From: Ruditapes philippinarum | Taxonomy: Eukaryota | Direction: 5' to 3' | DNA: 64,000 nt | Assembly: GCF_026571515.1 (NCBI RefSeq) | Contig: NW_026861919.1 | Coordinates: forward strand, 62,001-126,000 | Shown here: piece by piece, positions 904-50,300 of the stretch | How the letters are laid out: each line of letters starts with the position of its first letter | Position numbering within the stretch: the stretch's first letter is position 1 | Made by a program: the position numbers and the translations under genes | The notes under the pieces: generated by a model | The model's input: only the letters and a program-made list of their open reading frames with translations | Told to the model about the DNA's origin: nothing | The model's database searches: none

Positions 904-2667
904 CCCTCAAACACTGACAATCAACAGACCTTAGAAATTATTTATATATCTCCTTCTGAAATTGAGGATGTACTGAAATCTTTAAACACCGATAAAGCAT
1001 CTGGACCTGACACTATCAGTTATCGAGTTTTATATGAGGCCTACCAACAACTTTCTTATCCCTTTCACCAGCTCTTCAACTTCTCACTAAGATCCAAGAA
1101 AATGCCGACATCCTGGAAGTTGTCAAATGTCTGTGCTGTATATAAAAAAGGTGATCCTGCTGTTTGTAAACAATTATAGACCTATATCTTTACTCAACAC
1201 TATTGAAAAAGTATATTGAACGAGTAGTCTTTAAACATATCTTTAACTTTTACAGAGACATTTCATTCTTCACTCCATCTCAGTCGGGATTCTTGCCAGG
1301 TGACTTTCAACTGTAAACCAACTTGCGTATCTTTACAATAATTTTTGCAAGGCTTTAGATGATGGCCTGGAGGTGAGGTCGTATTTTTTGATATCAGTAA
1401 AGCATTTGATAAAGTTTGGCACCAAGGTTTGTTAGTGAAACTTCATGAATCTGGAATTCGTGGAAATGTACATCAATGGCTTTCTGATTATTTAACAAAT
1501 CGTAGACAACAAGTTGTTCTTCCTGGTACCATGTCGGACTGTGTTACAATTGCATCTGGAGTCCCCCAAGGATCAATACTTGGGCCTCCTCTATTTCTTG
1601 TTTATATCAACGATATTGTTCAAGATATTGGTTCCAACATCAATCTTTTTGCAGATGACACTAGTCTCCATCTGATAGTTGAAACACCTACAGAAACACA
1701 TGATACCATGCAAAATGACATACAAAAAATTTGTCTTTGGGCAGATAAATGGCTTGTTCATTTTAATCCATCCAAATCCGAGTCAATGATTATATCAAGA
1801 AGAATTAATAAACCACATCACACACCTTTCACCAATGGCCAACAAATCCCCCAGGTTTCTGATCACAAACATCTAGGAGTGTTTTTTTCTGATGATGGCT
1901 CTTGGCATTCCCATATCAATTATATAAAAGAAAAGGCATGGAATAGAATAAACATAATGCGTAAACTTAAATTCAAACTAGACCGCAGGGCTTTAGAAAT
2001 CATATATACATCCTTCATTCGTCCTATTATTGAATATGCTGATATAATATGGGACAATTGTACATCCTACGAAAAACAAGAATTAGACAAAATTCAAAAT
2101 GAAGCAGCACGTATTGTGACGGGTGCAACAAAGCTGATATCGTTAGCTGATTTATACAATGATGTAAATTGGGAATCACTTTCTGACAGAAGAAGGAAGC
2201 ATAAGCTTATTCAACTTTATAAAATGAAAAATTGTCTCACTCCATCCTATCTATCGTCTATTGTACCAGATCTTGTTGGTCTGAACACTACATATAACTT
2301 ACGTAATTCTCAAAATATCGATACAATTCGTACAAGAACAACTCTATACTATAATTCCTTTCTACCAACGGCACTTCGTGAATGGAATTCCTTACCAATT
2401 GAAACCCGTCAGCTACAGTCATTGAATTCTTTCAAAAGCTCTTTGAACGTAGACAAAATTAAAACTCCCCGACACTTCTATTATGGAGATAGACGGTCAC
2501 AAATTCTTCATACAAGACTTAGAACGAAATGCAGCTCTCTTAACCACCATCTGTTCTTAAAAAATATAGTATCATCTCCATTATGTAGTTGTGGCCTAAT
2601 TGAAGACAACCACCGTTTTTTCTTTATTTGCAAGAATTACACACAAATAAGAAATGCACTTTTTTAA
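904..2667 (+). pseudogene. LINE ORF2 remnant (reverse transcriptase), frameshifted, endonuclease missing
   Basis: ORFs 859-1179 and 1429-2667 are pieces of one RT reading frame broken by frameshifts between about 1170 and 1380. Confidence 0.9.
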
Positions 2668-10642: not shown

Positions 10643-11080
10643 GGGCTTAGTGCATATTAAAATTATTCTGCTATTTCCATAGGATAGCTGATAAACACTT
10701 CCCACGCGTATGAAAAATAATCATAAATAACTAAAATATAGTTTATTTGTTTTCATTAAAGAAGAATTAACTATTCACTATTAACTATTCAATTTTAAAT
10801 ATATTTGCACGAAATAGATAATCAAGTTAAATATTAAGTATTCTAATAATAACTGCTGTTTATAATTTAAAGATATCGGTAGGAGTTTTTCTATATGATA
10901 TTAAACGTGAAGAGCTGATGACTTTAAATTTTATTGGTTTATACAGAAGTAATTTTACTTCAATTATGTAGGTATCTAGTTACATATAGACACACTTTTG
11001 AATCCGTTCCTGGAACCAAACAGTACTGGGCAATGTGTAAACTTTCTTGCTTTAGAATACAACGGCTCGCTCCTGACTAG

Positions 11081-11813
11081 TGTTGTGCAGCCGAAAAATG
11101 ATAAAATTCATTTAAAAAAAAAAAGAATAAATATGCATGATGATTTTCTTTTAAACACAAATATTTATATATATAATCATTTTCTAAAAGGTCATATTTT
11201 TAAAACAAAATTTGTGAAATTTCAAATATGTTAAGTTACAAATTGTATGTGTTTCAATAACAGATGTCAAATTTAAAATTATGTAACTGGAAGATTAAAA
11301 TGCGGCTTTTCCTCTTTGTCCAATCAACTGTGCTAAAAGTTTTATAATGTATAGGTGATAAGGTCAATTAAGCTGTCTGTACTTATCATGTTGTTAAACC
11401 TTATGACTGATAAAATATCCAGGTGATGATTGTTGTTATAAATTCTATGTTGCTATGTTACATTATTTTGTATTGAAACCTGATTGGTCATTTTGTTATT
11501 TAAGACACAAAAAGGTTAAAATTCTATTGGTCAGTTAAAACGAAATCAATTTTAGAATTATTGTAAAGATATATGTAGAAAATTTAGAGTCAGTTAGATT
11601 TTGGATTTCCAAGTGATAACATTGTATTGTGGCTTTCCACAAAAAATAATCGTTACTGTTTTTAATATCAATTTGTTAACATCAGGATAACCTGTGTATA
11701 TGTTATATATTATCTGTGGTATTCCACTAAGAAAGAAACATTAAAATATAAAACGGAACATTGTGTTGAGATTCAATCCACCTTAAGTAGAACCCATAAT
11801 TCAGCGCATAACA
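11081..11813 (+). repeat. 5' LTR of the mini LTR element
   Basis: TGTTGTGC...GCATAACA. Contains two ATTGG (CCAAT) boxes, a TATA-like GATATAT, an Inr-like TCAGTT near 11590 and ATTAAA near 11740. Confidence 0.95.
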
Positions 11814-11894
11814 CGTGGCGGGAATCAGTGTCTTTCCCAACCTCTCAATTTAGCAAGCGAGACTACGAATTCAAATTCCCCAAGAAGAACAACA

Positions 11895-12779
11895 ATGAGT
11901 TTCACATATGGAATACCATTCAGAAGTGAAAAATCATGTGGACAATGTGGACTTTATCATAATAACAGACAGGAGAAGTGTTGTGCAAAAATGGCAAGAT
12001 GCAACAAATGTAATAGAATTGGACATTTTGCACGAGTTTGTCTACGTCCAGCAGTTAGGCAAAAGTCAAACCACTCAAAACTACGCGATCAGGAACGCAT
12101 GACAACTTTCATCAGACGCAAGACAGCTGAATACACATTTCCGTTTTACAATGAAGACGATGCCTACTTTAAGAAGAACCAAACAAACAATTCTGTAAGT
12201 AATGTTTCAACAGCAGAATTTCAGAAGTTGAAATCTTTGACCGATTCAATGACTAAAACTATTTACGGTTTAAAAGCAGAAAATACTGCCCTTGTTTTTA
12301 AAAATCAAAGACTTAAGGATTTTAATGAAAAACTACAGGATGAGGTTTCCATAAAGAAATTAGAAATAAGTCAACTTAAAGAAACATTTTTTCAAAACAA
12401 CAACTCGCTAAAGAAAAAAATTCGGACTGACTCTTCAAAACTAGAGATAATGGACAAACTTATATTAGAATTTAAGAAACTAAATGACGACTATGAACAA
12501 CTGAGATTGAAGCACAACCAGAAAGCCTATGAAATTATGATGATGGAATCAAGAAAAAACAATCAAATAGATGACTTGAAAGATGAAAACCACACCTTGA
12601 AAGATGAAATTGCCCAGTTGAAAGACAAAACTAAATATCTATGTCGAAAAAGAGGAAACAGAAATCAAGATCTTTCAAGTACATGCGAAACCGGGTTCCC
12701 ACATGAATGGAGAGGTCAATATCATCATGGAAGACAACAAGGACAGAGGGGACAATACAACAGAAATAGACGTCATTAA
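11895..12779 (+). CDS. 294-aa zinc-knuckle / coiled-coil protein encoded by the mini LTR element
   Basis: Intact ATG-TAA ORF. N-terminal CGQCGLYH...C and CNKCNRIGHFARVC (CX2CX4HX4C), heptad-rich K/E/L region at about aa 105-250, C-terminal RGQYHHGRQQGQRGQYNRNRRH. Confidence 0.85.
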   Translation: MSFTYGIPFRSEKSCGQCGLYHNNRQEKCCAKMARCNKCNRIGHFARVCLRPAVRQKSNHSKLRDQERMTTFIRRKTAEYTFPFYNEDDAYFKKNQTNNSVSNVSTAEFQKLKSLTDSMTKTIYGLKAENTALVFKNQRLKDFNEKLQDEVSIKKLEISQLKETFFQNNNSLKKKIRTDSSKLEIMDKLILEFKKLNDDYEQLRLKHNQKAYEIMMMESRKNNQIDDLKDENHTLKDEIAQLKDKTKYLCRKRGNRNQDLSSTCETGFPHEWRGQYHHGRQQGQRGQYNRNRRH

Positions 12780-12995
12780 AACTGTGTTGTTTACAATAAG
12801 ACAGTGATTAGGATATTTATTATTAGTGAATGGTACTTACGCTTTTCAGCAAAATCGGTGCTTTATATTCAAGTATATATTTCTGTAACTGAATATCTTA
12901 TGTAAACAGTATTCTGATTTAATGATATTTATTTTTGTTAAATAGTATTTATGCTTCATTTCACAGGAGTGAAATAGTCTTAAAGGAGGGAGAAG

Positions 12996-13728
12996 TGTTG
13001 TGCAGCCGAAAAATGATAAAATTCATTTAAAAAAAAAAAGAATAAATATGCATGATGATTTTCTTTTAAACACAAATATTTATATATATAATCATTTTCT
13101 AAAAGGTCATATTTTTAAAACAAAATTTGTGAAATTTCAAATATGTTAAGTTACAAATTGTATGTGTTTCAATAACAGATGTCAAATTTAAAATTATGTA
13201 ACTGGAAGATTAAAATGCGGCTTTTCCTCTTTGTCCAATCAACTGTGCTAAAAGTTTTATAATGTATAGGTGATAAGGTCAATTAAGCTGTCTGTACTTA
13301 TCATGTTGTTAAACCTTATGACTGATAAAATATCCAGGTGATGATTGTTGTTATAAATTCTATGTTGCTATGTTACATTATTTTGTATTGAAACCTGATT
13401 GGTCATTTTGTTATTTAAGACACAAAAAGGTTAAAATTCTATTGGTCAGTTAAAACGAAATCAATTTTAGAATTATTGTAAAGATATATGTAGAAAATTT
13501 AGAGTCAGTTAGATTTTGGATTTCCAAGTGATAACATTGTATTGTGGCTTTCCACAAAAAATAATCGTTACTGTTTTTAATATCAATTTGTTAACATCAG
13601 GATAACCTATGTATATGTTATATATTATCTGTGGTATTCCACTAAGAAAGAAACATTAAAATATAAAACGGAACATTGTGTTGAGATTCAATCCACCTTA
13701 AGTAGAACCCATAATTCAGCGCATAACA
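12996..13728 (+). repeat. 3' LTR of the mini LTR element
   Basis: Copy of 11081-11813. Only one difference seen by eye (G11694 vs A13609). Confidence 0.95.
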
Positions 13729-14684
13729 CTAGTCGGGCGCGTTAACCACTCGACCATGCGGCTAATTTATTTGTCAACAGTTTAGAATAAACCCAGAATG
13801 CCCATGGTTCTTTGATGTTTCTCTACAGATCATGCATGTTCCATTCCAAGCTTATTAACACTTTGTCATATTGTGTTTTGTAAATGTAGTTTGCACTGAT
13901 TGTTACATCTTTAAGCGAGTGTGATGAAAAATCAAATTTTTATTTAGCGATTTTCTTTAAAAACGTAGGCCTGCACGAAATTGTATACTAATGAAGACGA
14001 TATCAATACGTGGAGCAAAGTTACTACTACCGTAAGCAAAAAAAAAAATCTAATAAAAATCGAATGATAATGATAACTGCATTGTTTTAAGAAAGAACAA
14101 AAACATTTTCTACATTAAGCTTTTTTTTTCTTTTAAGGAGTTCTTTATTAAATTGCGCAGAAATAAAGTATTAAAATCGATGTGTGGGTTAACTTTCAGC
14201 AATTCATAACTAATCGTCTATATTTTATGATTTCCCTAAACATTTTTATCAGATATAATCATAATGAAAGTAGTCCCTTAAGACCGTAAGTTAATGCAAA
14301 ATAGTAATTGAAAATATATCATAGGGCGAGATATTGATTCTAGTTAGTTTTGAATAGTACTTCAATTCTGAGAAATATATCCGGGGATGATAATAAAAGA
14401 CCTGTAGACTTGAGTCAGTTTAATTACGCCAGTTAAAGTATTGTTATTTATATTTCAATATGCCCTCCGCAGTACAAATATATCCCCTTTTTATGTTTTC
14501 TTCGAACAGGAATCATGATATACAATGAAATGCGCGCTAACTTTACAAAACTCCAAAATGGAACCTAAGTTCTTGTTTCAACTGTATCACACTTATGGCA
14601 GACCGTATACAATTTGATTGATCCGGATTTCTGACATTTCTTTTTTTTATTTTCCAACGTTTGTTCGGCAGGCACACACATAAT

Positions 14685-27600: not shown

Positions 27601-30600
27601 GTGTTTTACTATTTTGAACATATGTGCCGTTTGACCGTGGCCTACACTTTACAAAATTCTTTCGACACTTTTTTTTTCAATTCTTATCTTACACTGATGA
27701 ATAGCTTATTCTAGTTTAAAAAATGGACACATTCATTTAAGATCTTTAGCGTAATAAGGGTTGATTTAAATTCAAAATATGGTAAACAAGACCAACAAGG
27801 AAAGGTGGGGTTCAATAAACGCATAGCAACAAAGTCCAGCGGTCAGGAGCCCAGGAGGACGAACAATGTCATTTTATCCTACGGTACTTTTTGTATGTGA
27901 ATGGAAAATATCGCAATCAAACAGCAGAACTAATTAAATTCGTGTTGAATTCTAGTTCCTGATTTCAGACACACTGTTTCAGTGCGTTACTAGTACTTCT
28001 CGGTCACTCATCTGTCATGTTTGCTTCAATATGCAACATGCGTCATTTCAAATTTACCTGCAGACAAAAGTGCAGCAGTAAATGACGAAAAGGTAATCAC
28101 CAGATGGAATGTCAGTTATATCACATATTTATCAAACCTGAACCTAAAGCATATTTGATTAATGTAAATAAATGATTATAAAGTAAAAACAGATTGAGTC
28201 AGTGATTACTTATATAGACTCTTTTGAAATGGATACCGATTAAGCTGGTGCAATAGAGGGGGGGGGGGGGGGGGGGTTTAACGATGATGCAATATCATTA
28301 TCGCTCACAGAGACTTTATTTCTATTTACCAGTTGCGATTGGAAACATCCAGTTTTCAAGTGTGGTTTTTATCTGAATGATCTGTGACAAAAACTGTGAG
28401 CGATGTTAGTTCAGATGTACTAGCAAACAGACAATTTTACTGTACATGCCACCTGGCGCCGGTTTAAGCAATGATTATCATCGTTTAATCATCGTTCAGT
28501 CAAGCCTTATAGAAATTCCGCCTAAGAATCCATGTGGAAGTGAAAATTTGCTGGGCAAAGGTACAAGTCAAAGGAGTTAGTATCACTTAAATTAGAAAAA
28601 AGGAATAAATAAAAACAACGAAATGTCGCATGATAGAAGCCCAGTGAATAAATTTTGAAAGAACGTTAGGGGATTTTAAGCCTGTAATTTGTTAACAAGA
28701 TGCCCTCGAACTATAGACGTTCTAACTGAAAGAAAAAAAATAACTAAAAAAGAGAGATTGATAGAATCTCTAAAGAACACCCAAAACGGCAAATGAAAAT
28801 ATTGCAGGTCCGTTTTGATTGATCCTGTTGATGGATTTGTCGTATAGCTGGTTGCACAGGCTAATGAGTCATACACGCTATATTCAAAAAGAATGACAAG
28901 TCAACATGTATATACATATAATAAGGTTTTTATTTCTTAATGTGCACTATGGAACATGACATGATTTATGAGTATTATAGTGCAGGAGATGCATACGGAC
29001 TGACCTTATGTCAGGATGATTTATATATGTAACTCTAAAACGTGTGTATTTATATACATTATAAAATGTCCTTAGGACAGGTTGATATTATATATACTAT
29101 TCTCAAATGTCAGAGTGGGAGTTCAACTTTGGTATTCCACTCGTTCACATGTGTGTTTGTATTTGTATATTAAAAGTATGTAACATCCGTGAGTTCTTTC
29201 TCCGTTATACGACAACGGTTGATTTGGCGCCTAAGACCAGCGATGTCGAAGCGACGATTTTGGACAGCGGGACACAACGAAGTACCTGAAACAGAAAATT
29301 AAAGGTGAGTGATCGTTTATATACCTGTAACTTGCTAATTTTGAAGATGTCAGATCAAGATATAGCTACAATTTTTGAAAATTTGTCAGATAAATTGAAC
29401 AATATTTCAACTATCATAGGTACACAGGATTTATCAGAAATAGTACAAAATTTTGATGGAAATTCTAAATATTTTAATGACTGGATAAAATCTATAGAAA
29501 AATATGCTATTTTAAAAGGTTTGGATGATAATAAAATAAAATTAGTCGCATTTCAATCAAGTAAAGGGACTGTAAGCGATTTTATATGTAGATATTTGCG
29601 TGATAATCACCGTAATTCGTGGGAACAATTAAAAGAAGAAATAAGTACTAGATTTGGGGAAATTAAAGATTTACATCATGAATTTTATCTTTTGAGAAAT
29701 TTAAAACAAGATTTGGGAGAAAGTGTTCAAATTTTTTTGGGGAAAAATTTATTAATTGTGCTGAAACCGCTTATGAAAATTATAAAACTAGGAGATAATA
29801 GTTTAATTGAACTTCAGTTAGTAGAATTGTTTACGGATAATTTAGCGCATAATTATTTAAAACTTAAACTTATGAGAGAAAAGCCAAAAACTTTACAAGA
29901 AGCAATTACTTGCGCAATGAATGAACAGAATTTCAGAGCTAGATTTTCTGCCAGAGTAAAATTTTCTAATGCTCAAAATCACGCAAAATACATGAATTAC
30001 AAAGCAAATAATTTTAATCATTATTATACAAGAAATTTTTGCGTGTACTGTAAGAGACCAGGTCACCATGTGCGTAGTTGTAGATTTAGGAAAAATGAAA
30101 TATATTTTGTATTTCACCGACAAAATTTTTCACGATTTAAGAAAAATAATAGCAATAATAGTTTGAAATCAAAGATTAAGTGCTGGAAATGTAATAATTT
30201 TGGTCATATTATGCGTGAATGTCGTAAACAAAATTTTTACGACAGAAACAAAATAAATTTTCAGGAAAACTAGCAAGTTCCTGTCACAAAGGGGTCATTG
30301 ACAGGAACGATAAAATACCAAAATAGATTCAATGTCTCTAGGACTTCAAAGCATAGTCCATTTTATTTGTTATATAACCGTGATCCAATTCTCCCGGTGG
30401 ACCTGTTGCTACAACCAAGGCAGCGCTATCATGGCGAAGAATATCACAAAATTGCATTACAAGAACAACATAATACTTTTCTATCTGTTTATAAGAACCT
30501 TAAAAAAGCAAAACGAGAACAAGCTAGCTATGCAGATAAGACCGCAAAAGATATCAAATTTGAAATAGGCGATCCCGTATTTTATAAGAATTTTCGTAAG

Positions 30601-32335
30601 AGAAGCAAACTAGATGTGAATTGGAAGCCATTTTATAGAATTATGGAGAAAAGGTCACCATTAACTTATATAATAAAAAATCAGTTTGACAATTCAACAG
30701 TTAAAGTCCATGCAGAACAAATTAGGCTCGCAAATATTAATGACTGGTCAATACCAAAAGCAGATGAAACTGGCCGACCAAAAAGAAATGCCACATTTGT
30801 AGTAACACCTGAAAATAGCGATACTGATGATGCTTCAGAAATACCAGAATCAGTATTACCCCAAGTTGCTAAGAATGTAAGAAAAAGAAAGATCAAATTC
30901 TGATAGTGAAGATGATATTCCATTAGCCGAATTACAGAAACATCTTCGACAACAACAACAAATTTCAAATAATGAAAATGTTCAAAGTAATGCACATTCA
31001 GAAGAAATGCAATCGCAGACTGATTCAGAATTAAATAGCAATCCTCAGTCACTAGCAGCATATAATGCTATTCAGACAGATTCAATGGCTGAGGATAATG
31101 ATTCAGATAATGAAATGTTTATAAACTCTGTTTCTACTAAAAAGAAAAGTATTGTAAAACCACGATATAAAGTATCTGGTAAGGTAAACACAAAGGTACA
31201 TAATAATAATAAACGCTTGAAACCGAATGTTAAAATGTTTTTACAGGATTAGCCAGTATGCTATAGAAAGTTATATTCCGTGTTATGTGCTATACTAATT
31301 TTCGGTAAATTGACCTCAGGCATTGTAAATAGTTATTATAGAAAAAAATATATATGTTACAAGAAACGATAATAAAACAAAACAGAAAATTACATTATTT
31401 AATCATATATCTTTATATTTTTGGTGGTTGTATTCATTAATATCAATTTTCAACTTGCTTTTATTAGAAATATATCTTTGATTTTTTATTATTGCTTAAA
31501 ATGATCGTTATTCGCTATATGTTTATAAATAGATCGGTTAATTAAAATGCATTTCAAAGTAAATGACAGCACTTAATCATGAGTTTCAAATTGATTATTT
31601 ACTTTATTTCATATTAGAATAACATGTGTATACATACATGTTTCAACTGTCAACGCACAATCATTAAATAAAGTTTAAATTGGGATAAGTCTTATTGTCG
31701 AAATAAAACTAAAGTTAATAGCTTAGTTAAAAACTAACAAAATATGTCTAGAAAAGTAAATTTTTTTTTTAAATATCAAGTATTACATAAATAAGATACT
31801 TACACTAGAGAACATCTTTCATTGGAATTCTTATCCTATGCATTTTATGACAGTTGTCTTGTTGTTCATATATCTGAAACAAAATTATGTTTATTGTATA
31901 TAATATCTATTAACCGATCTGACACCGGACGAAAATGCAAAATATTGGTCTAACGATCACTTGTCGTCCAGCCAAGACAGAGAGGTGCGAGCGAATTCGC
32001 CGGTACAGTAAAACACCGCCTGACTAGAAATATTACAGTCAGCCTCTACGATGTCATCTATGTACAACAAAAAAAAACCATGCAGATATAACCATAAACA
32101 CCTTCTTCGATGTAAAACCATGCAGATATAACCATAAACACCTTCTTCGATGTAAAACCATGCAGATATAACCATAAACACCTTCTTCGATGTACAACCA
32201 TGCAGATATAACCATAAACACCTTCTTCGATGTAAAACCATGCAGATATAACCATAAACACCTTCTTCGATGTAAAATTATATGAAATAAGCGTCTACGA
32301 TGTTTAAAATATATAACTATGCTGACACAGCCGTC

Positions 32336-32379
<44 letters not shown>

Positions 32380-35300
32380 AATTGTGGAATCAAATAAACT
32401 TTTGTTCCTGTCTTCAACCAGAGAAGCCGAAAACTTCCGTTTATCAATAGAATGTGTTTTTCTATGTGTTATATAAACTTAAAAACAAAAACCCAGAGAA
32501 ATACTGATGACAACTTCTTATCAAAATAATTATTTGTGCGCGACAGAGATATCCAAAATAAATATCACATAAACATTTGCAAGAATCGTGCAACAGCAAA
32601 CTGTTAATTTAATTATCTTTTACTCAAAAACATTGCTACATAAATGAAGAATTATAGATCTATCATCACTTTGTTGTATTGTTCAATACAAGACATTTTA
32701 CAACGACGAAACAAGAATAGCGTTTACAGATGTGCCAATAAATATTCGAATATAACTTTATCAACTTGTGTATAAAGTCTACGTTTACACATATCAAATA
32801 CATATATATAAATTTTAAAGAATCTTCAACAACATCAACCATTTATGAACAATTATGAGTGTCAATTTAAAATTATTCTTTAGAAAGCTACATACCAACG
32901 ATTTGAAATTCCCGACACGTCACGACCACCAAGCCATACGATGTCAGCAAGTACCTGTTACAAAAAAATATACCTGTCACAGGAAGTGTTCAATGCGCAT
33001 GCACAATACACGTTTTACAGGAAATGAAACACCTGGACATTTTATCAATTATCAATTGTTTATAATATTTTTTAAACTTTTTCGTATATAAATATCTTTT
33101 CTACTCTTATCATACATATAATTCTGTTAAATTTTATACCTTAAAGTTTTTCTAATTAATATTCTTAAAATAATTTGTTCTTTGAAAATTGTTAACTTAT
33201 TTGTTTGTTTTTTTATGTTTTCTTGATCTCTAGAAATTAACTTTTTTTTCTTTTTTTTTATGATGAAATAAAGGAAATTTAATATTTATTGAAAAACTTA
33301 TAAAGCTATAATATTTACCTTATGTCACTTTAATATTATTTGTAGAATAACAGTTATATTAACTGATTAAAAATTTCGAAAAGATTATCTTTACATTTAA
33401 CAATAATTATTTTTTTTACTTATTAAAAACATTACAAAATTGTTGAAGTAAATTATAACTTACCCGACTGCAGTATCCGAAAACTTTTTAAAAAGTGACA
33501 AGAAAATATATTGAGCGAATATTTCCGAATATTGTTTCCTAAGGCGTTTTTCTTTTTTCAAAATAAAGTAACAAAAGTCGTTAGATAACATCTCTGACCG
33601 GACATCTCTGACCGGATATTACCTTAAGGGTAAAACAGATGTCAAGTTGATTTTAGATTTTTATAATTTGTTAGAACGAGTTTGAAATGTTTGATATTAA
33701 ATAATAACTTGTTCAATACTTTTTTTTTTAAATATTTTTTTTTATAAGTAATGGAGGAATTGTCGTATAGCTGGTTGCACAGGCTAATGAGTCATACACG
33801 CTATATTCAAAAAGAATGACAAGTCAACATGTATATACATATAATAAGGTTTTTATTTCTTAATGTGCACTATGGAACATGACATGATTTATGAGTATTA
33901 TAGTGCAGGAGATGCATACGGACTGACCTTATGTCAGGATGATTTATATATGTAACTCTAAAACGTGTGTATTTATATACATTATAAAATGTCCTTAGGA
34001 CAGGTTGATATTATATATACTATTCTCAAATGTCAGAGTGGGAGTCGGCTTTGGTATTCCACTCGTTCACATGTGTGTTTGTATTTGTATATTAAAAGTA
34101 TGTAACATCCGTGAGTTCTTTCTCCGTTATACGACAGATTGCAGTGGTATTTGCCAGCTACCGCCAACGCCCCTAGTATTTTTAGATTTGTACTTTGTAT
34201 TCCATTTAACAACGCTTACAAAACACTGACCTAAGCCCCATCAAAACAAAAACACAATTTTGTGCTGAAAGTATATTATTAAACAGAAATACAAGTCATT
34301 CTTTATCTTGCGATAGTGTTTTTGAGTAATATTAACTTAAAGGAATCTGCTTCTTCTCGCAGGTGGCAACACAAATCGATTTGTTCATAATAAATCAGAA
34401 TTAACCATTAGCAGAACCAAACAATGGATTACTCAAGACAATGCTCTTACTGAATCGCGAAAACGTTTTTGTTTTGTCACAGCTAAATGTATACATGTGA
34501 TTTTGAATGATTGCATTCACACCAGTAATGTATACCATAGGAAAAAAACTTGTGCTGTCAATGATACTAATCAGTTTACCATGATATTGGCCAAGATGCT
34601 TTGTAAAAGGAACACCCGTAGTAATTTGGAATCACCTTTATGAAGTCCATCAGTTAGCAACAATGGTGTCAAATTTGAAAATATTATCACAGACAATGAG
34701 AGTATTTTAGGTTTAAATGTCATAGAATACCAACAATTTGAGGCCTACATTTTTCTAAGTAACGGCAAAGATTTACAATCTTTGATGCAATTTAAATGTT
34801 GCAACATTGCTCTGTAAGCCGTTCGACGCAAAGAGAGGGTCTACAGTATTAGGTAATGACTAACAGTTTTAGTAGTTCCGATGTTTAAGTTCTTTTCGGT
34901 CATGATGAGTTTAATCAACATAGCCCCCCACACACAATATGGTGGTAAAGAAAGACGCTTTTACATGATCAAATATAAAATGTCATATAGTGGCTACCCA
35001 TTAATGTTTTTGACTAGCTTTATTAGTCAGTTAAGAGATGTTTGGTAAATTTCGTCGTTTAAACTCAAAACAATTCCAGAATAAATTTATATTTAGAAAA
35101 CAAGAGTGAAGATAGATCAATAATGTATTCTTTTGAAATCATTCATGTGGGAATACTCAGTAAATAATTGAGTGCTTTAAGCATTTTTACTATTGCTTTA
35201 AAGTTATTCCGATAGGCTATAATTAGACACCAATCAATGACCTCTGTTAACTGTGAAGGTTATACTCTCATAGTAAACATGTCTTGTCGTCCAATGACTT

Positions 35301-38300
35301 GCATAATCATCAAGCGAAATATTATCATTTTAAAGATTTTGTTTTATATCGATAACTTTATATTTCATTCAACAATGCTTTCTGAACATTGAGTTAAGCC
35401 CCCTCCTCCTGCTTCGTCATTTTTATACTTATTTTTGTTCTCATGTTCGGTACCATGATAAGTTCCCTTTTCGGTGATGCCTTGGGGCTTGATTTTGTTT
35501 CGGTTGCATTTCGGTAAAGGTTTCTTATTCGTCTTTGTACTCATCCATGAATAAAAAGATGTAATCAAATATTTTATTTAATGTGTCAGTCTTAAAAATA
35601 ATGTTTTGGTCATTTAATGATCCATGCACGTTTAGTATTTTTAATTTAATATATTTACTTCTTGCGGCAAGTTATACTTTTCCACCTTCTATTAAACATT
35701 TTTTTCTGAATAAGAACAATATTTTTACAGCTCTGGAAAGGAAGATTACACGAGACTTGGTTTATACAGAATTTATTTTAGTTCGATCGTGTAGGAAGCT
35801 ATAAGCTTATAGACACACTTTCGAATCCGTTCCTCGAACCAACCAGTTCTGAACAATGAGTGTAAAGAACAACGACTGGCCCCTGACGGGGTTTAAACCC
35901 ATGCGACTAGCTTCAAGTTTCAAGTTTTTTATTTCAACTAGGCCCATATGGGCATCAGTTTTATAAACAGTAAAATTTCACAAACAAATGAGCATTAACA
36001 AAATAATACAGATGTGTAAATAAAGCTTGAGACAAAATAATTTGCATGATAAATACAAAAATAAGACTAGAGATTCTTAAATTATGAATGACTTTACAAA
36101 TGAGTGACTAGAATGATACATAATGCAACCGCACAATGAAAGTTCCTGACCAAAACGCAAATGAAGTGATGCAGCGACATGGTGTAACCACAACATGGGG
36201 CCCATAAAGCCCCACACTGCAACCACACCACGCCGGTACAATTAGTTCCACAAAAATTAAATAGGAAGTGTCACAATGCGATTACAAATGTCATGAGACC
36301 TTAAAGATGAAAAAATAACAAAAAAATAAATAAAATACATAAAAATAGATAAAAGTAAATAATGAAAATAAAGACAATATTTGGCAATAGATACTGACTA
36401 GAAGGTGGTAAACATTATTTCACAATAGACATTATTCTTTGTGTAAAAACAGACAGTTTGATTAATACAGTTCTATCAGTATTTTGAAATAATTGCTGTA
36501 AATTAAACATGTTACCTCTTCGTAAATTAATGGGCAAGTACTTTCTACGATAAATGTTAAAATAAGGACATTGAAAAATATAATAAAACTCACCACCTAA
36601 TAAAGAGTTATTTGGACAGAGATGGCAATATCTTAAATCATGATCCAAACCTATATAACGACCCTTTTCAATAGGGAGTTTATGGTTACTACATCTAAAC
36701 CTACACAGCGATAAGGCTAGATTTCTAGGTAAAAGTTTAAAATAGGCTTCTAACTCAAATGAGGATTTAAAAATTCTGTAAGTGATACATTTGCTAGAGT
36801 TAAACACTTGTTCATGCTACATTTGAACATATTGGTCTTTGATTCTAGATTTGACAATATTTTTAAAATAAGAAGGTGATAACACAGATTGGTTTATCCA
36901 GTATTCAGCAAAACCAAGCTCTTGCAATGACTTTTTAACATAAACTATCCATGGGGAGAGATATACGTTTTGACGGTCCAATTCAAACATTAGTTTGTAC
37001 ATAATATTACATACTTTATCAGGTTTCGAATTAATGATTTTGCACCAAAAATTTAGGACTCTACATTTTATGACACAATCAATTGGAAGAGTACCAAGCT
37101 CCCCAAATATCATAACACTAGGAGTGGACTTTTTGACACTCATTATGAGTTTAAGATATTTCAACTGAAATTGCTTTACAATATCAATGTTACCTACACC
37201 CCACACTTCTACACCATATAACAATAACAAAATAGGAGTGACCATGGAGTCAAAAAGTTGTAACTGTAAATCTATATCAAGACAAAGAGTTCTGGATTTT
37301 TTAAGTACAGCAAACATAGCTTTTCTAGCTTGGTCACACAGGTATTTAGTAGTTTTATTGAACTTACCATTATAATTAAACTTAACACCTAAGTAGCTAA
37401 AATCCTCAACAATATCAAGTATGGCATTGTTAAATTAACAAGAAGGAGTATTTCTACATTTCCCTTTTGAAAAAATCACCACTTTAGTTTTGGCTGTATT
37501 TACTTGAAGTTTCCATAACTCGCAATAAGTAGACATAGCATCTAGTGCTAATTGAAAATCAGATGCAGATTCTGCAAAAATTACAGTATCATCAGCATAA
37601 AGCAGTAAAAACAATTTAAAGTAAACCTCTACTATACCATCACTTAGTACATTTTTAATAGACTGCGAAAGTAAATCTAAACCATTATACGTATTTGAGA
37701 TATGTTCTACAAGATCATTCAGGAAGACAGAAAAAAGAATGGGTGATAGGTTTTCACCTTGACGGACACCTGTTGCACTTGTAAAATATGTTGATAAACC
37801 CTGAGTGCTTTTTACACAGGATTTAGCTTTGTCGTAAATACTATAAATTACCCTTAGCATTTTACCATCTACATTGTGCTTTAAAAGTTTCATCCATAAA
37901 AAAGTTCTATTTACAGAATCGAAAGCTTTTTTATAATCCACAAATGCACAATATAATTTCTTATTCTTACTTAGATAAAAATCAACTAACAGTTTCAAAG
38001 TAAATATATGATCTACAGTTCCATAATCTTTACGAAAACCAGCCTGCTCTTCACATAACAGTCCTGAATTTTCTAGAAAAGTATTAAGTCTGTTATTAAG
38101 AATACTTGTGAATAATTTTCCTAAACAACTTAAAATAGTGATTCCTCTGTAGTTGTCTGGGTTATTTACATCACCCTTTTTTTATAAATAGGAAAAATAA
38201 CTCCTTTGCACCAGACTTCTGGGACACATGCTGATTCAAAAATGATATTAAACAATTTATTTAGAACAGGCAGCATAATATCTTTAGAGTACTTGATATA

Positions 38301-41300
38301 CTCATTCAATATATTGTCATGTAAAGAACAAGCTTTATTATTACTTAAACCATTAATTGCATTCAATATTTCACTGTTAGTTATAGTGGAGTTCAATTCA
38401 AATTTATAATCTGATATATTGGTTATATCAAAATCAACATTCTCTCCCTCATTATTTTCATTCAATTTACTGAAATGTTCATAAAAAGCCTCTGCACTAA
38501 TATTAGACATAATTTTATTTCTTTCTCCCGAGTATTTATTCAGTAAAGACCAATATGCTTTAGCGATTATTAGATTACTAGTCCGACGCGTTAACCACTC
38601 GGTCATGCCGCCACTACTCAAAAGTTAAAACAGAAAGAAAAGTTACACAAAAATTCTAATGAACAAAACGATACAGAATCTATCTTGTTATCTAACATTA
38701 TACCGTTTGCCTTTTTAAGAAAAAATGGGACAACATTGATTTGTAGAAAAGAAAATTAAGTTTAGGATGTAGAGATAACATAATTATCCAACTTTATTAC
38801 GCAAAAGTGAAAATTGTATTAAATGACAAATTTTACCACTGTTTGATAGGGATCCGATCGTCAAGTACTTAACTTACAACTTATTTAACGATTTCATTTT
38901 GTACACGACTATGTTTCAGCGGAGATGATGCCTTAGCGTATGTATCATAATTTAGTAAATCACGTGCTATATTAACTTTTTAATTATTATATTGGATCAA
39001 GTATATTTATTTAAATTTTCTTTTTTACTCGACTTTTTTAATTTTCTCGTACATTAACATGCTTTCAAAACTGGTTTTATTTTCAATAAATTAGCTTACT
39101 TTAAAGTCTACTATACAGGGAATCTGCATGTTTACACAATTTTTAAAATACTTTCCATTTTTTACTCATAAACATAGCGCACTCTTATTTATTTTACAGT
39201 TTTATATTATGGTTGCTATTATAGAAAAAATAATGCAAGAAAATAATTAAAAGTAACATTATTTCAATTATTATTTAGCAGTTATTATAAGTACAAAATT
39301 TCATATATTTATGGGGATTTCTGAATGTAAAAATGACAAAATAATTTGTGTTGGTAGGAAACTTCTCACTGATTATTACAATAGAATTGTAAATACAACA
39401 AAGTTATGATTATGTAATCAATGGCACTGTGAATCGAAATTTGAACCGGTCATATTTTTTGCTAACCCTTCTTCATGCTAATCTCTATTTGGTACATCTT
39501 GCCTTTTTTGTCCGTCAATATTCTTAATACAGTCTTCATTATTAATCTTTTTTATCAAGTACATTTAAGATATGTAGCTTTGTAAGGGTCTATTGTTATA
39601 ACACTTCACTCATGGCTAGATCCATGCTGGTCGCAAACCCATTATGTTGGTTTTGTCGTGACACGGCTCATTTATAATTTAGAAGATAAAAATTTGTAAC
39701 AAATCATATTAAATGATAATCTCTTTACCGTTGCCTATTTATTGCTGTTAAGTTCTTTAATCTTCTTGCTAAAAAATTAAAATACAACTATGGCATATTT
39801 TGCGCTATGGCATGATTATAACAAATGTTTTCACATGCAATTTTTATTATAATTGTATATATGACTATGTATATATGCTCATGCTTGTCTTTACATTTGT
39901 TAGGTTTAATTCTTCAAATATATTTCATATGTCTTCTAAACTTAGACATATTTAAGATTATGGTTTAATTGCGATATATATATATATAAAATGCTTGTTA
40001 ACAAGTGAGATGCAAACATTTTAACAAGTCTAGTTATTTAGTACACATATTTAAATTCGTTTTTCGAATACATTCGGCTTCAAGAATAATATTTTCGTCT
40101 TCCTTTGACAGTAAAACATGCAAATTGTATTGCTCTTTTGTTTAAATTTTTCAAAATTTAAATGTTCATATTTACCTTTTAAATATAAGATTATGCATAA
40201 GACATTATAGAGGGCGTAGAAATTAGCTTGCTTACTAAATTTTTATTTTTTTTATATTTTCCTTTTAAATATTGGATTCTTCGTAAGCCATGATAGAGGG
40301 TGTGGAAGTTAGCTCGCACTTTCCAGTACAGTCCATGAAGAAGTTTAATCAAAGCAAGACTGAAACATTTTCAATTTTGTCGTTTTTAGCGTTCTTTACG
40401 GATTCTTTTTTTTTTCTCTCAATTTTAATCATTTTCACTACAAATGCTCTATTAAGCCTATTTTATTACAAATTAACAAACGTCAGAAGCTCTGCTTTCA
40501 TTCACTTAATTTTGACAAGCCGCCAAAGTAAGCATATAAATCTTCTTAAGGTCTATTATCTGAAATCAATTTCGTTGTAGAAGTCTAAGCATATATAGTT
40601 TGTCATCAAAATGTTCAGTCCTTGATTGATGGGATAATGAATAAAGGCAACTCGCTCAATTTCATCAATTTGTTTCTATTTGAAGATAACTGTTATGAAA
40701 GTCAAATAATCTTGTGAAAAATGTATTTGAATTGGATTTCTGTAACATAAGGTTAACATGTTCAAAAAACAATATAAAAAACAACAAATACTTAAATTAA
40801 TTAAAGATTACAAACATGTATTAACATGATTTATTTCTTTTTCGATGAAATATGAATATTCTTATTAGATTTGTATACTAGGTTACAATTTTTTTCTAGA
40901 TTTAAAAAATATTCTATTTTGTTAGACCTTCAGACCTAATGACACAATGTTTTGATGTTACCGTTTTTATCGATAGGGATAATTATTTTCAAAAGAATGA
41001 ATGAAAATGATAACAGTTGTCAAATAAAGTAACATATCATTGCCTTGTTAAAAGGAGGCGGAATAATAAATTTTACCACGCGTAAAACTGAGAAATAAAA
41101 AAAACAATTTTGGGAGAAGTGCGTCCGGTCACAATTTTTCTTCAGCCACTCATTCGACTTTTTGCAAAAATGACATTTCCCAGTTTTAAGTATATCCAAC
41201 GTTTATCTGCAGGAAACTACCATGCTCTTTCCTTTTTCATGATTTCAAACACCACAATAATATAATAAAAGATATACAGATCAAAATATATCACCGATAA

Positions 41301-47300: not shown

Positions 47301-50300
47301 AAATCTGTTTAATTGTTGATGTCCTATTATAGTTTATAAGAGGTTACTCATAAGTTAACAAGATGAATAATCCTTCACTTCAGTTGCGATTAGCAATTAC
47401 ATGTTTGTTTTTATGTTATAGTGATCAGGTATATTTATAGATATGTATACATTTAGCTACCTTTATAAAATTTATAACAAATATATTTACATACAGCGCT
47501 ACTTTCGGCAGGTGATAAACACACTCCAAAACCTAAATGTAACGGTTGTCCTTTTGAAAGGAGAAAAGTGTATTCATTTCGAAGGCATAATGTCTCTTTA
47601 AGACAATTAAATCTTATCTTTGACGCATAAATGACGATTTCATTTTTTTATTGCAGGAAATGAAGACACCATGGTTAAAGTTTTTCAAATCCATGCCAGT
47701 AATTGCTATTATGGTGGCAAATTTTTGTAGAAGTTGGACATTTTACCTGCTAATTATAGAACAACCTACTTATTTTAATGAAGTATTTGACTTCGATTTG
47801 TCAAAGGTAAACATATATAGATCACTTTTCAAGTTATTTATACCAACAACTCTCCACAAAGTTTGTATCAAATTGTAATAAGATTATGTTGAACGGTTGT
47901 AGAAATAATTCATAGTAAAATGGAGCTAAACTTTCTCAATCTCGGTCATTAATCCTATTGGTCGTCTGCTTCATCATCATAATTTTATGGTATTAGCAGT
48001 CGGTCACATGTGAAGAAATAAATAATTACTGGTTAGTTATCCATTAAAGCAGGTAAAGATACACGGACCGCCGATATACACATGTATATGACAAAAAAGT
48101 GTTAAAGATCCTACAACTTATTTTTTTATGGTTTTATATCATAAATATAATGCTAAAATGAAAAGTTATCAATATTGTAAGTTCCAAAGAGCACTATTTG
48201 TAAAGGTATTACCGAATTTACATTTCATGTTTACTTAATAAAATGAGGTAATTAGAAATTTATTTTCTATAAAGTCTAAGTCATACTTTTCAATAGGAAA
48301 TGAATGCATATATTTTAATGATTATATATAATGTGGACAAATATTTGCAGTACATATTTTACCTGTTCTCGATGTTTGAAAATTGTTTTAGAAGCATAAT
48401 TATATACATATATAAATTTTCACTTAAATGTGAAACAACCTTAATTACAACATTCAGGATCTTTAAATTAAGGGTTAAGACCAAACAAACACAAGCTAAG
48501 TATTTAAACTTTCATATCAAGACGGGAATAAAAACACGTTTCATCAAGTTTATTCTGACAATGCTTGACTTTATTTCTATTTATAGAGTGGTATTCTGTC
48601 CGCCCTACCACATCTTATAATGGCGATTATTGTTCCGATAGGAGGTTTTATAGCTGACTACCTGCGCCGCCGAGGTATACTTTCTACAACAGTTGTTAGG
48701 AAAATCTTCAACTGTGGAGGTAAAATGTTAGTTTTCTCATAGTGTAGAAACTTTTGTATATTATTATTATAACAGGGATTGATAGGGACTACCTGTACCA
48801 GTATTCAGCGATTATTTATATAGACATGTCGGCATTTATTTCATTGTAGTTAGTATATTTCTCAAAATTAGGAAACAAGTAAATTACAGCATCTGGGATT
48901 CGCAAGAGTACTAAGCGCAGAACAAGATTCAACTTCCAGCAATGCGCCTTAGTCTAATAAAAATGTATTTATTAGTTGTTTTGTTATATAACGTTACGTT
49001 GATAATGATTGTGTGTTGGGATAGGTAACCTCTGAATTAGCCACTTCATTGACCTGTTTTATGCACACGATGAAATTTCAGAGTAATTCAAATTAATTGG
49101 CAAAATACGATTAATTTTGTAAAAGTACAAACGACCTATGTATCATAATTCTGGGAAATATTATTTTTTTACATTATTAAAGGTTTCGGTATGGAGGCCG
49201 TTTTCCTGTTAGGTGTAGGTTTTACACGTAACACAACCACTGCCATTGTGTGTCTCACACTTGCTGTTGGATTCAGTGGGTTTGCAATATCAGGTATTTT
49301 CATATATTTATCTTTTGATTATTCATTTCTATTTTATAATACTACCTTCCTTCCCAAATCTTCAATTCTTTAGTGCAAATCGCTCGCCATACCGCAAGCT
49401 AGCTGGATAGCATCGTTACATGAAAGACTCCAAAGTCCGTGACGAGATTCGAACCCGCTGAGGTGATAGCCGAGTGATTTAAACTTGACGAACCTAACCA
49501 CTTGGCTTAGGCGGCCATGATATTAACCAGGTCTTGGTTCCTGTTTAAAATATAATGATTTTAATCTCTAGTTCATCTCCGATAATAAGAATTTTCTTAG
49601 AGTTAACAATAAATGGTTTTAAGAAACTTATAAATTTTATGAAAAGGTCATTTGTTAATTGAATTATTTTTTATGCTGCCCGCAAAATTCGGGGGAGCAT
49701 ATAGTCGCCGCCTTGTCCGTCCGTCCGTCTTTCCGTCCGTCCGTCCGCTTTTCTTGTCCGAGACATAACTTTGAAACAACAAAAGGTATCAACATGAAAC
49801 TTTGTAGGTAGATAGATCTCATTGAGAAGCTGTGCAGTGTACAAGAACCGTAACTCTGCCTTGCCTAATTTTTGAATAATTCCCCTTTGTTTATTTTTAC
49901 ACTTTAAACTTTGTCCGGGACATAACTCTAAAAGTATAAAAGGTATCAACATGAAACTTTGTAGGTAGATAGATCTCATTGAGTAGGTGTGCAGTGCACA
50001 AGAACCGTAACTCTGCCTTGCCTAATTTTTGAATTATTCCCCTTTGTTTATTTTACACTTTGAACTTTGTCCGGGTCATAACTCTAAAAGTATAAGAGGT
50101 ATCAACATGAAACATTGTAGGTAGATATATCTCATTGAGTAGGTGTGCAGTGCACAAGAACCGTAACTCTGCCTTGCCTAATTTTTGAATTATCCCCCTT
50201 TGTTTATTTTACACTTTGAACATTGTCCGGGACATAACTCTAAAAGTATAAGAGGTATCAGCATGAAACTTTGTAGGTAGATAGATCTCATTGAGTAGGT

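Follow-up and report, generated by a model that had tools for sequence, protein, structure and literature searches.

Introduction

In plants, TR-GAG elements have two long terminal repeats (LTRs), one open reading frame (ORF) and no pol, and are moved by an autonomous relative (PMC8704663). BHIKHARI-1 of zebrafish is a young LTR element with one long ORF, whose product includes a coiled coil and ends in a basic, glycine-rich stretch (PMC12067270). Helenus TRIMs, which include bivalve elements, are non-autonomous, contain tRNA-derived sequence and have 4-bp duplications in animals; such duplications and priming from a tRNA 3' end also characterize animal Gypsy-dependent elements (PMC10886601). 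Among autonomous elements, the Ty3 nucleocapsid (NC) promotes tRNA annealing, RNA dimerization and packaging, and primer contacts are extended in both Ty1 and Ty3, where additional arms of the tRNA pair as well (PMC4974528). LINE-1 ORF1p joins RNA-binding parts to a long coiled coil (PMC5940361).

The element described here lies in a 64,000-nucleotide stretch (hereafter the window) of contig NW_026861919.1 of the bivalve Ruditapes philippinarum, and it resembles each of these systems in some respects. It has the two LTRs, single ORF and missing pol of TR-GAG, the youth and the (predicted) coiled coil and basic end of BHIKHARI-1, the 4-bp duplications, tRNA 3'-end priming and tRNA-derived sequence of the animal Gypsy-dependent elements and Helenus, and the ORF1p-like union of putative RNA-binding parts with a long predicted coil. 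An earlier note, made from the sequence alone, had proposed that the ORF encodes a multimerizing RNA-binding adaptor that could load its own RNA into helper particles or compete with them.

Element Structure, Copies, and Mobility

The element is an LTR retrotransposon of 2,648 bp. Its 5' LTR (11081–11813, forward strand) and 3' LTR (12996–13728, forward strand) are both 733 bp long with TG..CA ends, differ by one mismatch, and are flanked by identical 4-bp target-site duplications (11077–11080 and 13729–13732). A polypurine tract (12982–12995, forward strand) adjoins the start of the 3' LTR. The 1,182-bp interior holds a 294-aa ORF (11895–12779, forward strand) as its sole gene, and no pol was found within it. 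Together with a primer site, these are features of a non-autonomous Gypsy-dependent LTR retrotransposon.

The 1.4-Gb genome has at least 40 copies of this element, based on 40–41 DNA matches that cover the interior nearly fully or partially (40 of 97 candidates scored); the long matches are 82–100% identical. At the protein level, the ORF has 137 matches. Among the 49 family loci examined, 4-bp target duplications are present in 24 of the 30 copies with both ends located. LTR pairs have a median identity of 98.7%, with at least 99% in 17 of 37. The LTR anatomy, the duplications, the near-identical LTRs and the lack of pol indicate recent and repeated copying of the element by enzymes, reverse transcriptase and integrase, that are encoded elsewhere. 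The ten LTR-only loci comprise seven solo LTRs and three additional element copies. None of them adjoins a Gypsy pol in the ORF listing, and the possibility that an autonomous element has the same LTR was rejected.

The insertion site lies within or next to a short repeat (10934–11038 and from about 13729 onward; also at 35757–35861). RNA read depth over this repeat exceeds 600, and reads connect 11035 to 13728. The window also contains two non-LTR-type reverse-transcriptase fragments, one with an RVT_1 match (1531–2667, forward strand) and one recognized by eye (36817–38606, reverse strand), as well as tandem arrays at 49686–51150 (nine copies of units of about 157 bp) and 32076–32277 (40-bp units). 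A second LTR element (28837–34134) has LTRs of about 300 bp inside a 99% identical repeat. Its gag (29347–30273), with a weak Ty3_capsid match and two CCHC knuckles, runs into a stop, followed by what looks like only the C-terminal end of an integrase, as in a gag-only deletion derivative. Its knuckles and primer site are of other types, and it was rejected as a candidate.

Expression of the ORF varies between data sets. In one study, raw RNA reads gave a summed depth of 15–87 in 4–5% of each run; in two runs of another study the depth at the ORF was 0–2, with parts of the LTR still covered. This contrast suggests condition-dependent transcription, read from unstranded libraries in which several copies contribute reads and DNA carry-over or read-through is possible.

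Protein Architecture and Predicted Structure

All motifs quoted in the earlier note are in place in the translation. Near the N-terminus are two zinc knuckles of the Gypsy Gag nucleocapsid type (11937–12041, forward strand). Unit 1 (aa 15–30) has ligands C15, C18, H22 and C29/C30, and unit 2 (aa 36–49) is a canonical CX2CX4HX4C. C15, C18, H22, C36, C39, H44 and C49 are invariant in all 31 intact copies. The knuckles are followed by a conserved, family-defining module (12063–12149, forward strand; aa 57–85) that consists of a basic helix (aa 57–76) ending in a PF motif (FPFY, aa 82–85). Next comes a predicted coiled coil (12189–12650, forward strand; aa 99–252), and the protein ends in a predicted disordered basic tail rich in R, G and Q (12651–12776, forward strand; aa 253–294), with eight K+R against three D+E.

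The AlphaFold2 model, computed from an 85-sequence alignment, has a mean pLDDT of 82 and contains helices at 59–81 and 89–94 and a single 154-residue helix at 99–252. The long helix reaches pLDDT 96–99 across aa 111–240, and the tail stays below 50. ESM Atlas gave nothing beyond scores of 0.80–0.85. By a simple score, the heptad pattern spans 144 residues, a length reached by none of 500 shuffles. Asn/Ile at position a with Leu at position d is the kind of pattern that favors parallel dimers, and these letters in the coil suggest a dimer-like assembly.

The knuckles precede the coil with no recognizable capsid, as the earlier note had stated, and several searches agree. Only 14 residues precede the first Cys, leaving no capsid ahead of the knuckles by sequence. 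Pfam returned a weak, sub-threshold zf-CCHC match (E = 0.085), scattered coiled-coil family noise and nothing capsid-like, whereas in the Gag of the other LTR element of this window it detected a Ty3_capsid (weakly, E = 2e-5, below the cut-off). A PDB profile search gave no capsid match. Foldseek with the predicted model gave no match at E ≤ 0.001. In a VIA fold search, the best matches were generic coiled coils (Z = 8.7), and the best score for the N-terminal module was Z = 3.8, with no known match to the helix-PF motif; no capsid was among the matches listed in the fold searches, an absence that does not exclude a capsid family. The model itself contains knuckles and long helices and no other globular domain. 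This last result bears on the idea of a capsid substitute, in which knuckles and coil would self-assemble on the element RNA into a particle of their own and recruit only the Pol of a helper. Single-ORF LTR elements elsewhere do encode a structural protein (TR-GAG and BHIKHARI), and the size and position of the ORF are gag-like. Nevertheless, a model with no globular domain beyond the knuckles, and the fact that Pol normally enters particles through Gag, make such a substitute improbable.

A Widespread Protein Family

A profile built from six sequences gave 1,333 matches at E ≤ 0.001 among 1.84 billion representatives. Among the best 150, which were examined, 113 carry the helix-PF motif, as judged by a motif-only profile built from 12 seeds (11 of them among the matches). 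These 113 are clusters below about 50% identity, with lengths of 126–383 aa (median 272). The knuckle pair precedes the motif in 85 of them, starting at a median residue of 22 and at the longest at 128. R64, D65, R68, P83 and F84 are at least 90% conserved across 85 aligned relatives, and this short module is retained while the coil diverges freely. The coiled-coil score is positive in 79 of 81 long relatives, compared with 26 when shuffled. Pfam on the 85 aligned members found zf-CCHC in 43 and no capsid family among the best 25 of 73. Taken together, these results define a large unnamed family with N-terminal knuckles, a helix-PF motif, a coiled coil and no recognized capsid.

The C-terminal end varies. 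A second knuckle pair is present there in 13 of the 113 relatives, and 26 of the 68 long ones that lack it have an R/G-rich end. In a tree of 64 rows, the protein encoded in the window falls inside a group with all eight members that have C-terminal knuckles (95/80, two changes). By eye its tail resembles a decayed second knuckle pair, but the profile scores of three tails were matched by 47–321 of 500 shuffles, and this origin stands as a lead.

Four of 30 relatives looked up had names, and these four are from bivalves (Mytilus coruscus, Mytilus edulis, and Pinctada imbricata twice), labeled as CCHC-type domain-containing or hypothetical. One family cluster has 15 members on separate contigs. 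A second member in the present genome (L043) encodes a 33% identical ORF between different LTRs of 545 bp (97.8%), with a perfect tRNA-Ala site and a second knuckle pair behind the coil, and RNA contigs span it from inside one LTR to inside the other. The earlier note had asked whether homologs are always LTR-flanked; both families in this genome are. Searches with two distant relatives as queries found only these two families, and two scans of metagenome contigs and one of viral contigs found no loci. The LTR ends of L043 (3217–5444) and of the L116/L110 loci flanking L090 are, by alignment, AT-rich and inverted rather than TG..CA, with approximate positions; such ends thus belong to the related family and to a single autonomous element with a tRNA-Ala site.

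The protein is real, selected (see below), widespread and, as far as mostly open literature goes, apparently undescribed. No description of the protein or element type was found there (a consensus of this family may be contained in the supplements to the Helenus and bivalve surveys), and the available passages of two mollusc surveys do not mention such elements (PMC6238403, PMC10294476).

Purifying Selection on Transposing Lineages

Among the 30 closest genomic copies, 20 retain an intact frame of at least 290 aa and 10 have no full intact frame. Selection was estimated from 31 intact copies out of 50 loci, with 33 multi-base codon variants left out. For the whole ORF, omega is 0.333 (lnL −5030.0 vs. 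−5114.5 at omega = 1). By region, it is 0.55 for aa 1–50, 0.28 for aa 51–93, 0.38 for the coil and 0.46 for the tail; the value for the knuckle region is not clearly below 1 (lnL −534.9 vs. −536.6). The first 50 codons (11895–12044) also have a tree length of 1.25, under half of the 2.73 for the whole ORF; constraint at the RNA level or recombination among subfamilies may account for this.

Variants common to at least two copies, taken as inherited through transposition, include 156 non-synonymous and 121 synonymous changes (pN/pS = 0.30), whereas private variants, found in one copy, are near neutral (96 and 28, pN/pS = 0.80), and the two classes differ significantly (Fisher p = 5e-5). Pairs from different subfamilies gave values of 0.25–0.34, and one very close pair gave 1.4. 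We infer that copies decay once inserted and that lineages still transposing retain the protein. Low values for shared variants combined with near-neutral private ones point to a benefit in cis, as for a protein that favors its own RNA. A few host-selected source copies could mimic this pattern, and the choice of intact copies biases both classes.

One way to obtain such a benefit would be for the protein to act earlier in the cycle, coating its own RNA so that it is protected, exported or concentrated (escape from silencing or decay, or a granule scaffold) without direct contact with a helper Gag. This would explain selection in cis equally well, and it suits a long coil with RNA-binding ends, as in the relatives with a second knuckle pair or an R/G-rich end, and a coil that is free to diverge behind a conserved motif. 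What such coating does not account for is the presence of Gag NC-type knuckles like those of co-resident tRNA-Ala-primed elements, and we consider it a close but less probable rival of the adaptor reading given below.

The same data bear on roles in trans. The protein could be a competitor of helper Gag similar to Ty1 p22, or it could serve the host, with the element kept for that purpose. Ty1 p22/p18 shares the chaperone domain of Gag and competes for RNA (PMC4974528), young BHIKHARI copies serve their host (PMC12067270), and RNA coverage of the ORF is seen in only one of two studies. However, near-neutral private variants and broken frames in a third of the closest copies indicate that inserted copies are not preserved by the host, so that a role of this kind appears about as doubtful as a capsid substitute. 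Competition with helper particles is the weaker half of the original proposal, as a purely trans-acting inhibitor alone would not tie selection to transposing lineages.

An Antisense tRNA-Ala Leader

A feature new to this analysis is the leader behind the 5' LTR (11816–11880, forward strand), in which the primer-binding site extends into an imperfect antisense copy of almost the whole tRNA-Ala; it contains the best-conserved stretch measured. The primer pattern was read from a related element, and it matches tRNA-Ala genes and many LTR leaders. The duplex energy of this leader with tRNA-Ala is −57.2, compared with −30.3 ± 4.7 for shuffles, and past the first 18 nt it is −42.3 compared with −21.0 ± 3.3; neither value was reached by any of 500 shuffles. 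The values of the control tRNAs were matched more often, by 17 (whole leader) and 258 (past 18 nt) of 500 shuffles for tRNA-Leu and by 303 and 408 for tRNA-Cys. The 18-nt site itself is imperfect in most copies. It is partly tRNA-like in one of 44 copies listed and perfect in one more, which fits a primer that is occasionally copied back.

Across 30 intact copies, 11834–11880 differs at 0.032 of sites, compared with 0.125 for the LTR and 0.187 for third codon positions, and it is more conserved than all 61 overlapping non-coding windows tested. This conservation could also mark a packaging signal. Rfam gave no match at E ≤ 1 in 10800–14000.

A similar tRNA-Ala extension is present in 4 of 19 other loci with a perfect site. 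The leaders of L075, L077, L080 and L101 carry tRNA-Ala complement far past 18 bases (0–1 of 500 shuffles), and extensions of this length may recur among elements that use this primer. The second family member (L043) and the five autonomous candidates tested lack the extended antisense leader. Leader and protein are thus not obligately coupled.

Another locus with a tRNA-Ala site, L096 (G000:C11275, 14–4687 in primer-site orientation), has 991-bp LTRs (99%), a 4-bp duplication and no gag or pol. By eye, its 598-aa ORF resembles an envelope protein, with a basic site of cleavage type, a hydrophobic stretch, heptads and a hydrophobic end. The element also has a 217-aa ORF, and neither ORF has a Pfam match. 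L105, which has the same LTR, starts with a gag-like piece, and L089 contains a 316-aa ORF that by eye resembles the shorter ORF of L096.

Origin of the Knuckles and Candidate Helpers

The assignment of the knuckles to the Gypsy Gag type, in an N-terminal position, holds up in profile comparison. Against one Gypsy Gag of this genome, the family profile aligns across its 41 knuckle columns and no further (probability 93%). A profile of the family knuckles gives 43 and 49 bits for those in the Gags of two autonomous elements. The helix-PF motif behind the knuckles is present in none of 42 Gag/Pol loci and none of 26 longer matches; these longer matches, drawn from 8,000 candidates, are generic coiled coils and give weak evidence on fused forms.

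The ORF might be a non-functional leftover, in which the 3' end of an otherwise deleted gag was joined to a coiled coil captured from the host. The knuckles are indeed Gag-like, and coils of this type weakly match many host proteins. These coil matches are generic (4–18% identity), however, which also speaks against a captured host gene as the source of the coil. Purifying selection, the recurrence of one architecture in the 113 divergent clusters and the restriction of the motif to this family already largely refute the leftover reading.

Candidate helpers can be sought by primer site. The genome contains Gypsy elements that combine a perfect tRNA-Ala site with gag domains, PR-RT-RNaseH-IN domains or both. 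One of these has an intact PR-RT-RNaseH-IN frame of 1,712 aa and a 4-bp duplication, and others have Retrotrans_gag matches. One tRNA-Ala-primed Gypsy element has a Gag whose end carries the knuckle pair of the present protein, and this holds for several related Gags too. These candidates share the primer site and the knuckle type with the element, with no DNA similarity to it beyond the primer site. The Gag-Pol element L083, which we take to be Mag-like and primed by tRNA-Leu, has the best-matching knuckles (49 bits) and was rejected as helper on account of its other primer site and 5-bp duplication. These sequence comparisons point to a Gypsy Gag as the likely source of the knuckles, leave the motif and coil as the family's own, and narrow the helper to a clade of candidates.

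Proposed Mechanism

Several steps are shown by the data, namely the LTR anatomy, the 4-bp duplications, recent copying, the missing pol, the complementarity to tRNA-Ala and selection tied to transposing lineages. The reading that we favor, with a probability of roughly 45%, is that the protein forms a dimer, resembles a nucleocapsid in function and serves as an adaptor through which the element's RNA and primer enter the particles of a helper Gypsy element. Reverse transcriptase and integrase would be supplied by a tRNA-Ala-primed Gypsy element. The knuckles would bind and chaperone RNA in the manner of Ty3 NC, the coiled coil would form a parallel dimer presenting two RNA-binding heads, and the basic tail or second knuckle pair would touch RNA again at the opposite end. 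The helix-PF motif may dock onto a partner from the helper or the host; as the most constrained part of the protein, with no known match, it is the strongest candidate for such a contact. The mobility of protein-free TRIMs and mini-Ty1, which move without such a protein (PMC10886601, PMC4974528), leaves the need for an adaptor unexplained.

A wider and more tentative claim concerns the family as a whole. It may represent a widespread, undescribed class of bivalve satellite LTR elements with no capsid or polymerase. Each would encode one hijacking protein with knuckles ahead of a dimeric coil and a docking motif, capture its primer tRNA on an antisense leader and insert its RNA into helper Gypsy particles; this full picture is somewhat less probable than its adaptor component. 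The small protein, the 65-nt conserved leader, the tRNA-Ala primer and the named clade of candidate helpers bring competition for packaging by non-autonomous RNAs, a long-standing question, within reach of tests in vitro.

Comparison With Known Systems

The TR-GAG product is a full Gag, 562 aa long in one reported case, and the element resembles its autonomous partner (PMC8704663), whereas the protein described here has its knuckles first and no capsid match, and its element has no DNA similarity to the candidate helpers beyond the primer site. BHIKHARI-1 encodes 617 aa with a capsid domain and an N-terminal coil, compared with 294 aa starting with knuckles (PMC12067270). The knuckle pair has the same spacing as in Gypsy Gag NC (Ty3 and the double-knuckle Gags of this genome), but it is N-terminal and followed by a motif and coil that are absent from the 42 Gag/Pol loci.

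Helenus has its tRNA-like sequence within the LTR as a Pol III promoter and is non-coding and at most 1,263 bp long, and its listed bivalve primers do not include tRNA-Ala (PMC10886601). In the present element, the tRNA-like part is antisense and behind the LTR, and its 2.65 kb include a selected ORF; by length (2,648 bp), ORF and placement of the tRNA-like part, it falls outside TRIM/Helenus. Troyka, with CG..CG ends and 3-bp duplications, was rejected on the basis of the TG..CA ends and 4-bp duplications found here (PMC12440569).

The likeness to LINE-1 ORF1p drawn in the earlier note extends to logic only. ORF1p is known for its cis preference. The protein described here has no room for an RRM or CTD, its AlphaFold model predicts neither and no match to them was found. 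ORF1p belongs to a non-LTR element and is a trimer with RRM and CTD, in contrast to an LTR element whose protein has knuckles and dimer-like a/d letters (PMC5940361).

Non-autonomous LTR elements described to date are non-coding (TRIM and Helenus) or encode Gag (TR-GAG and BHIKHARI), and the present element would be a third type, with a selected protein that lacks a recognizable capsid. The family also lends an identity to more than 100 clusters of proteins without a name of their own, which currently carry the label "CCHC-type domain-containing protein". If the proposal is true, retrotransposon parasites can bring their own factor for winning helper machinery. Hepatitis delta antigen is the one protein of a satellite RNA, combines a coiled coil with RNA binding and ties that RNA to a helper particle. 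The parallel is an analogy alone, with no sequence or fold link seen and with different replication chemistry. Should the hijacking-adaptor reading hold, the element would be to retrotransposons what a satellite virus equipped with an adaptor of its own is to viruses.
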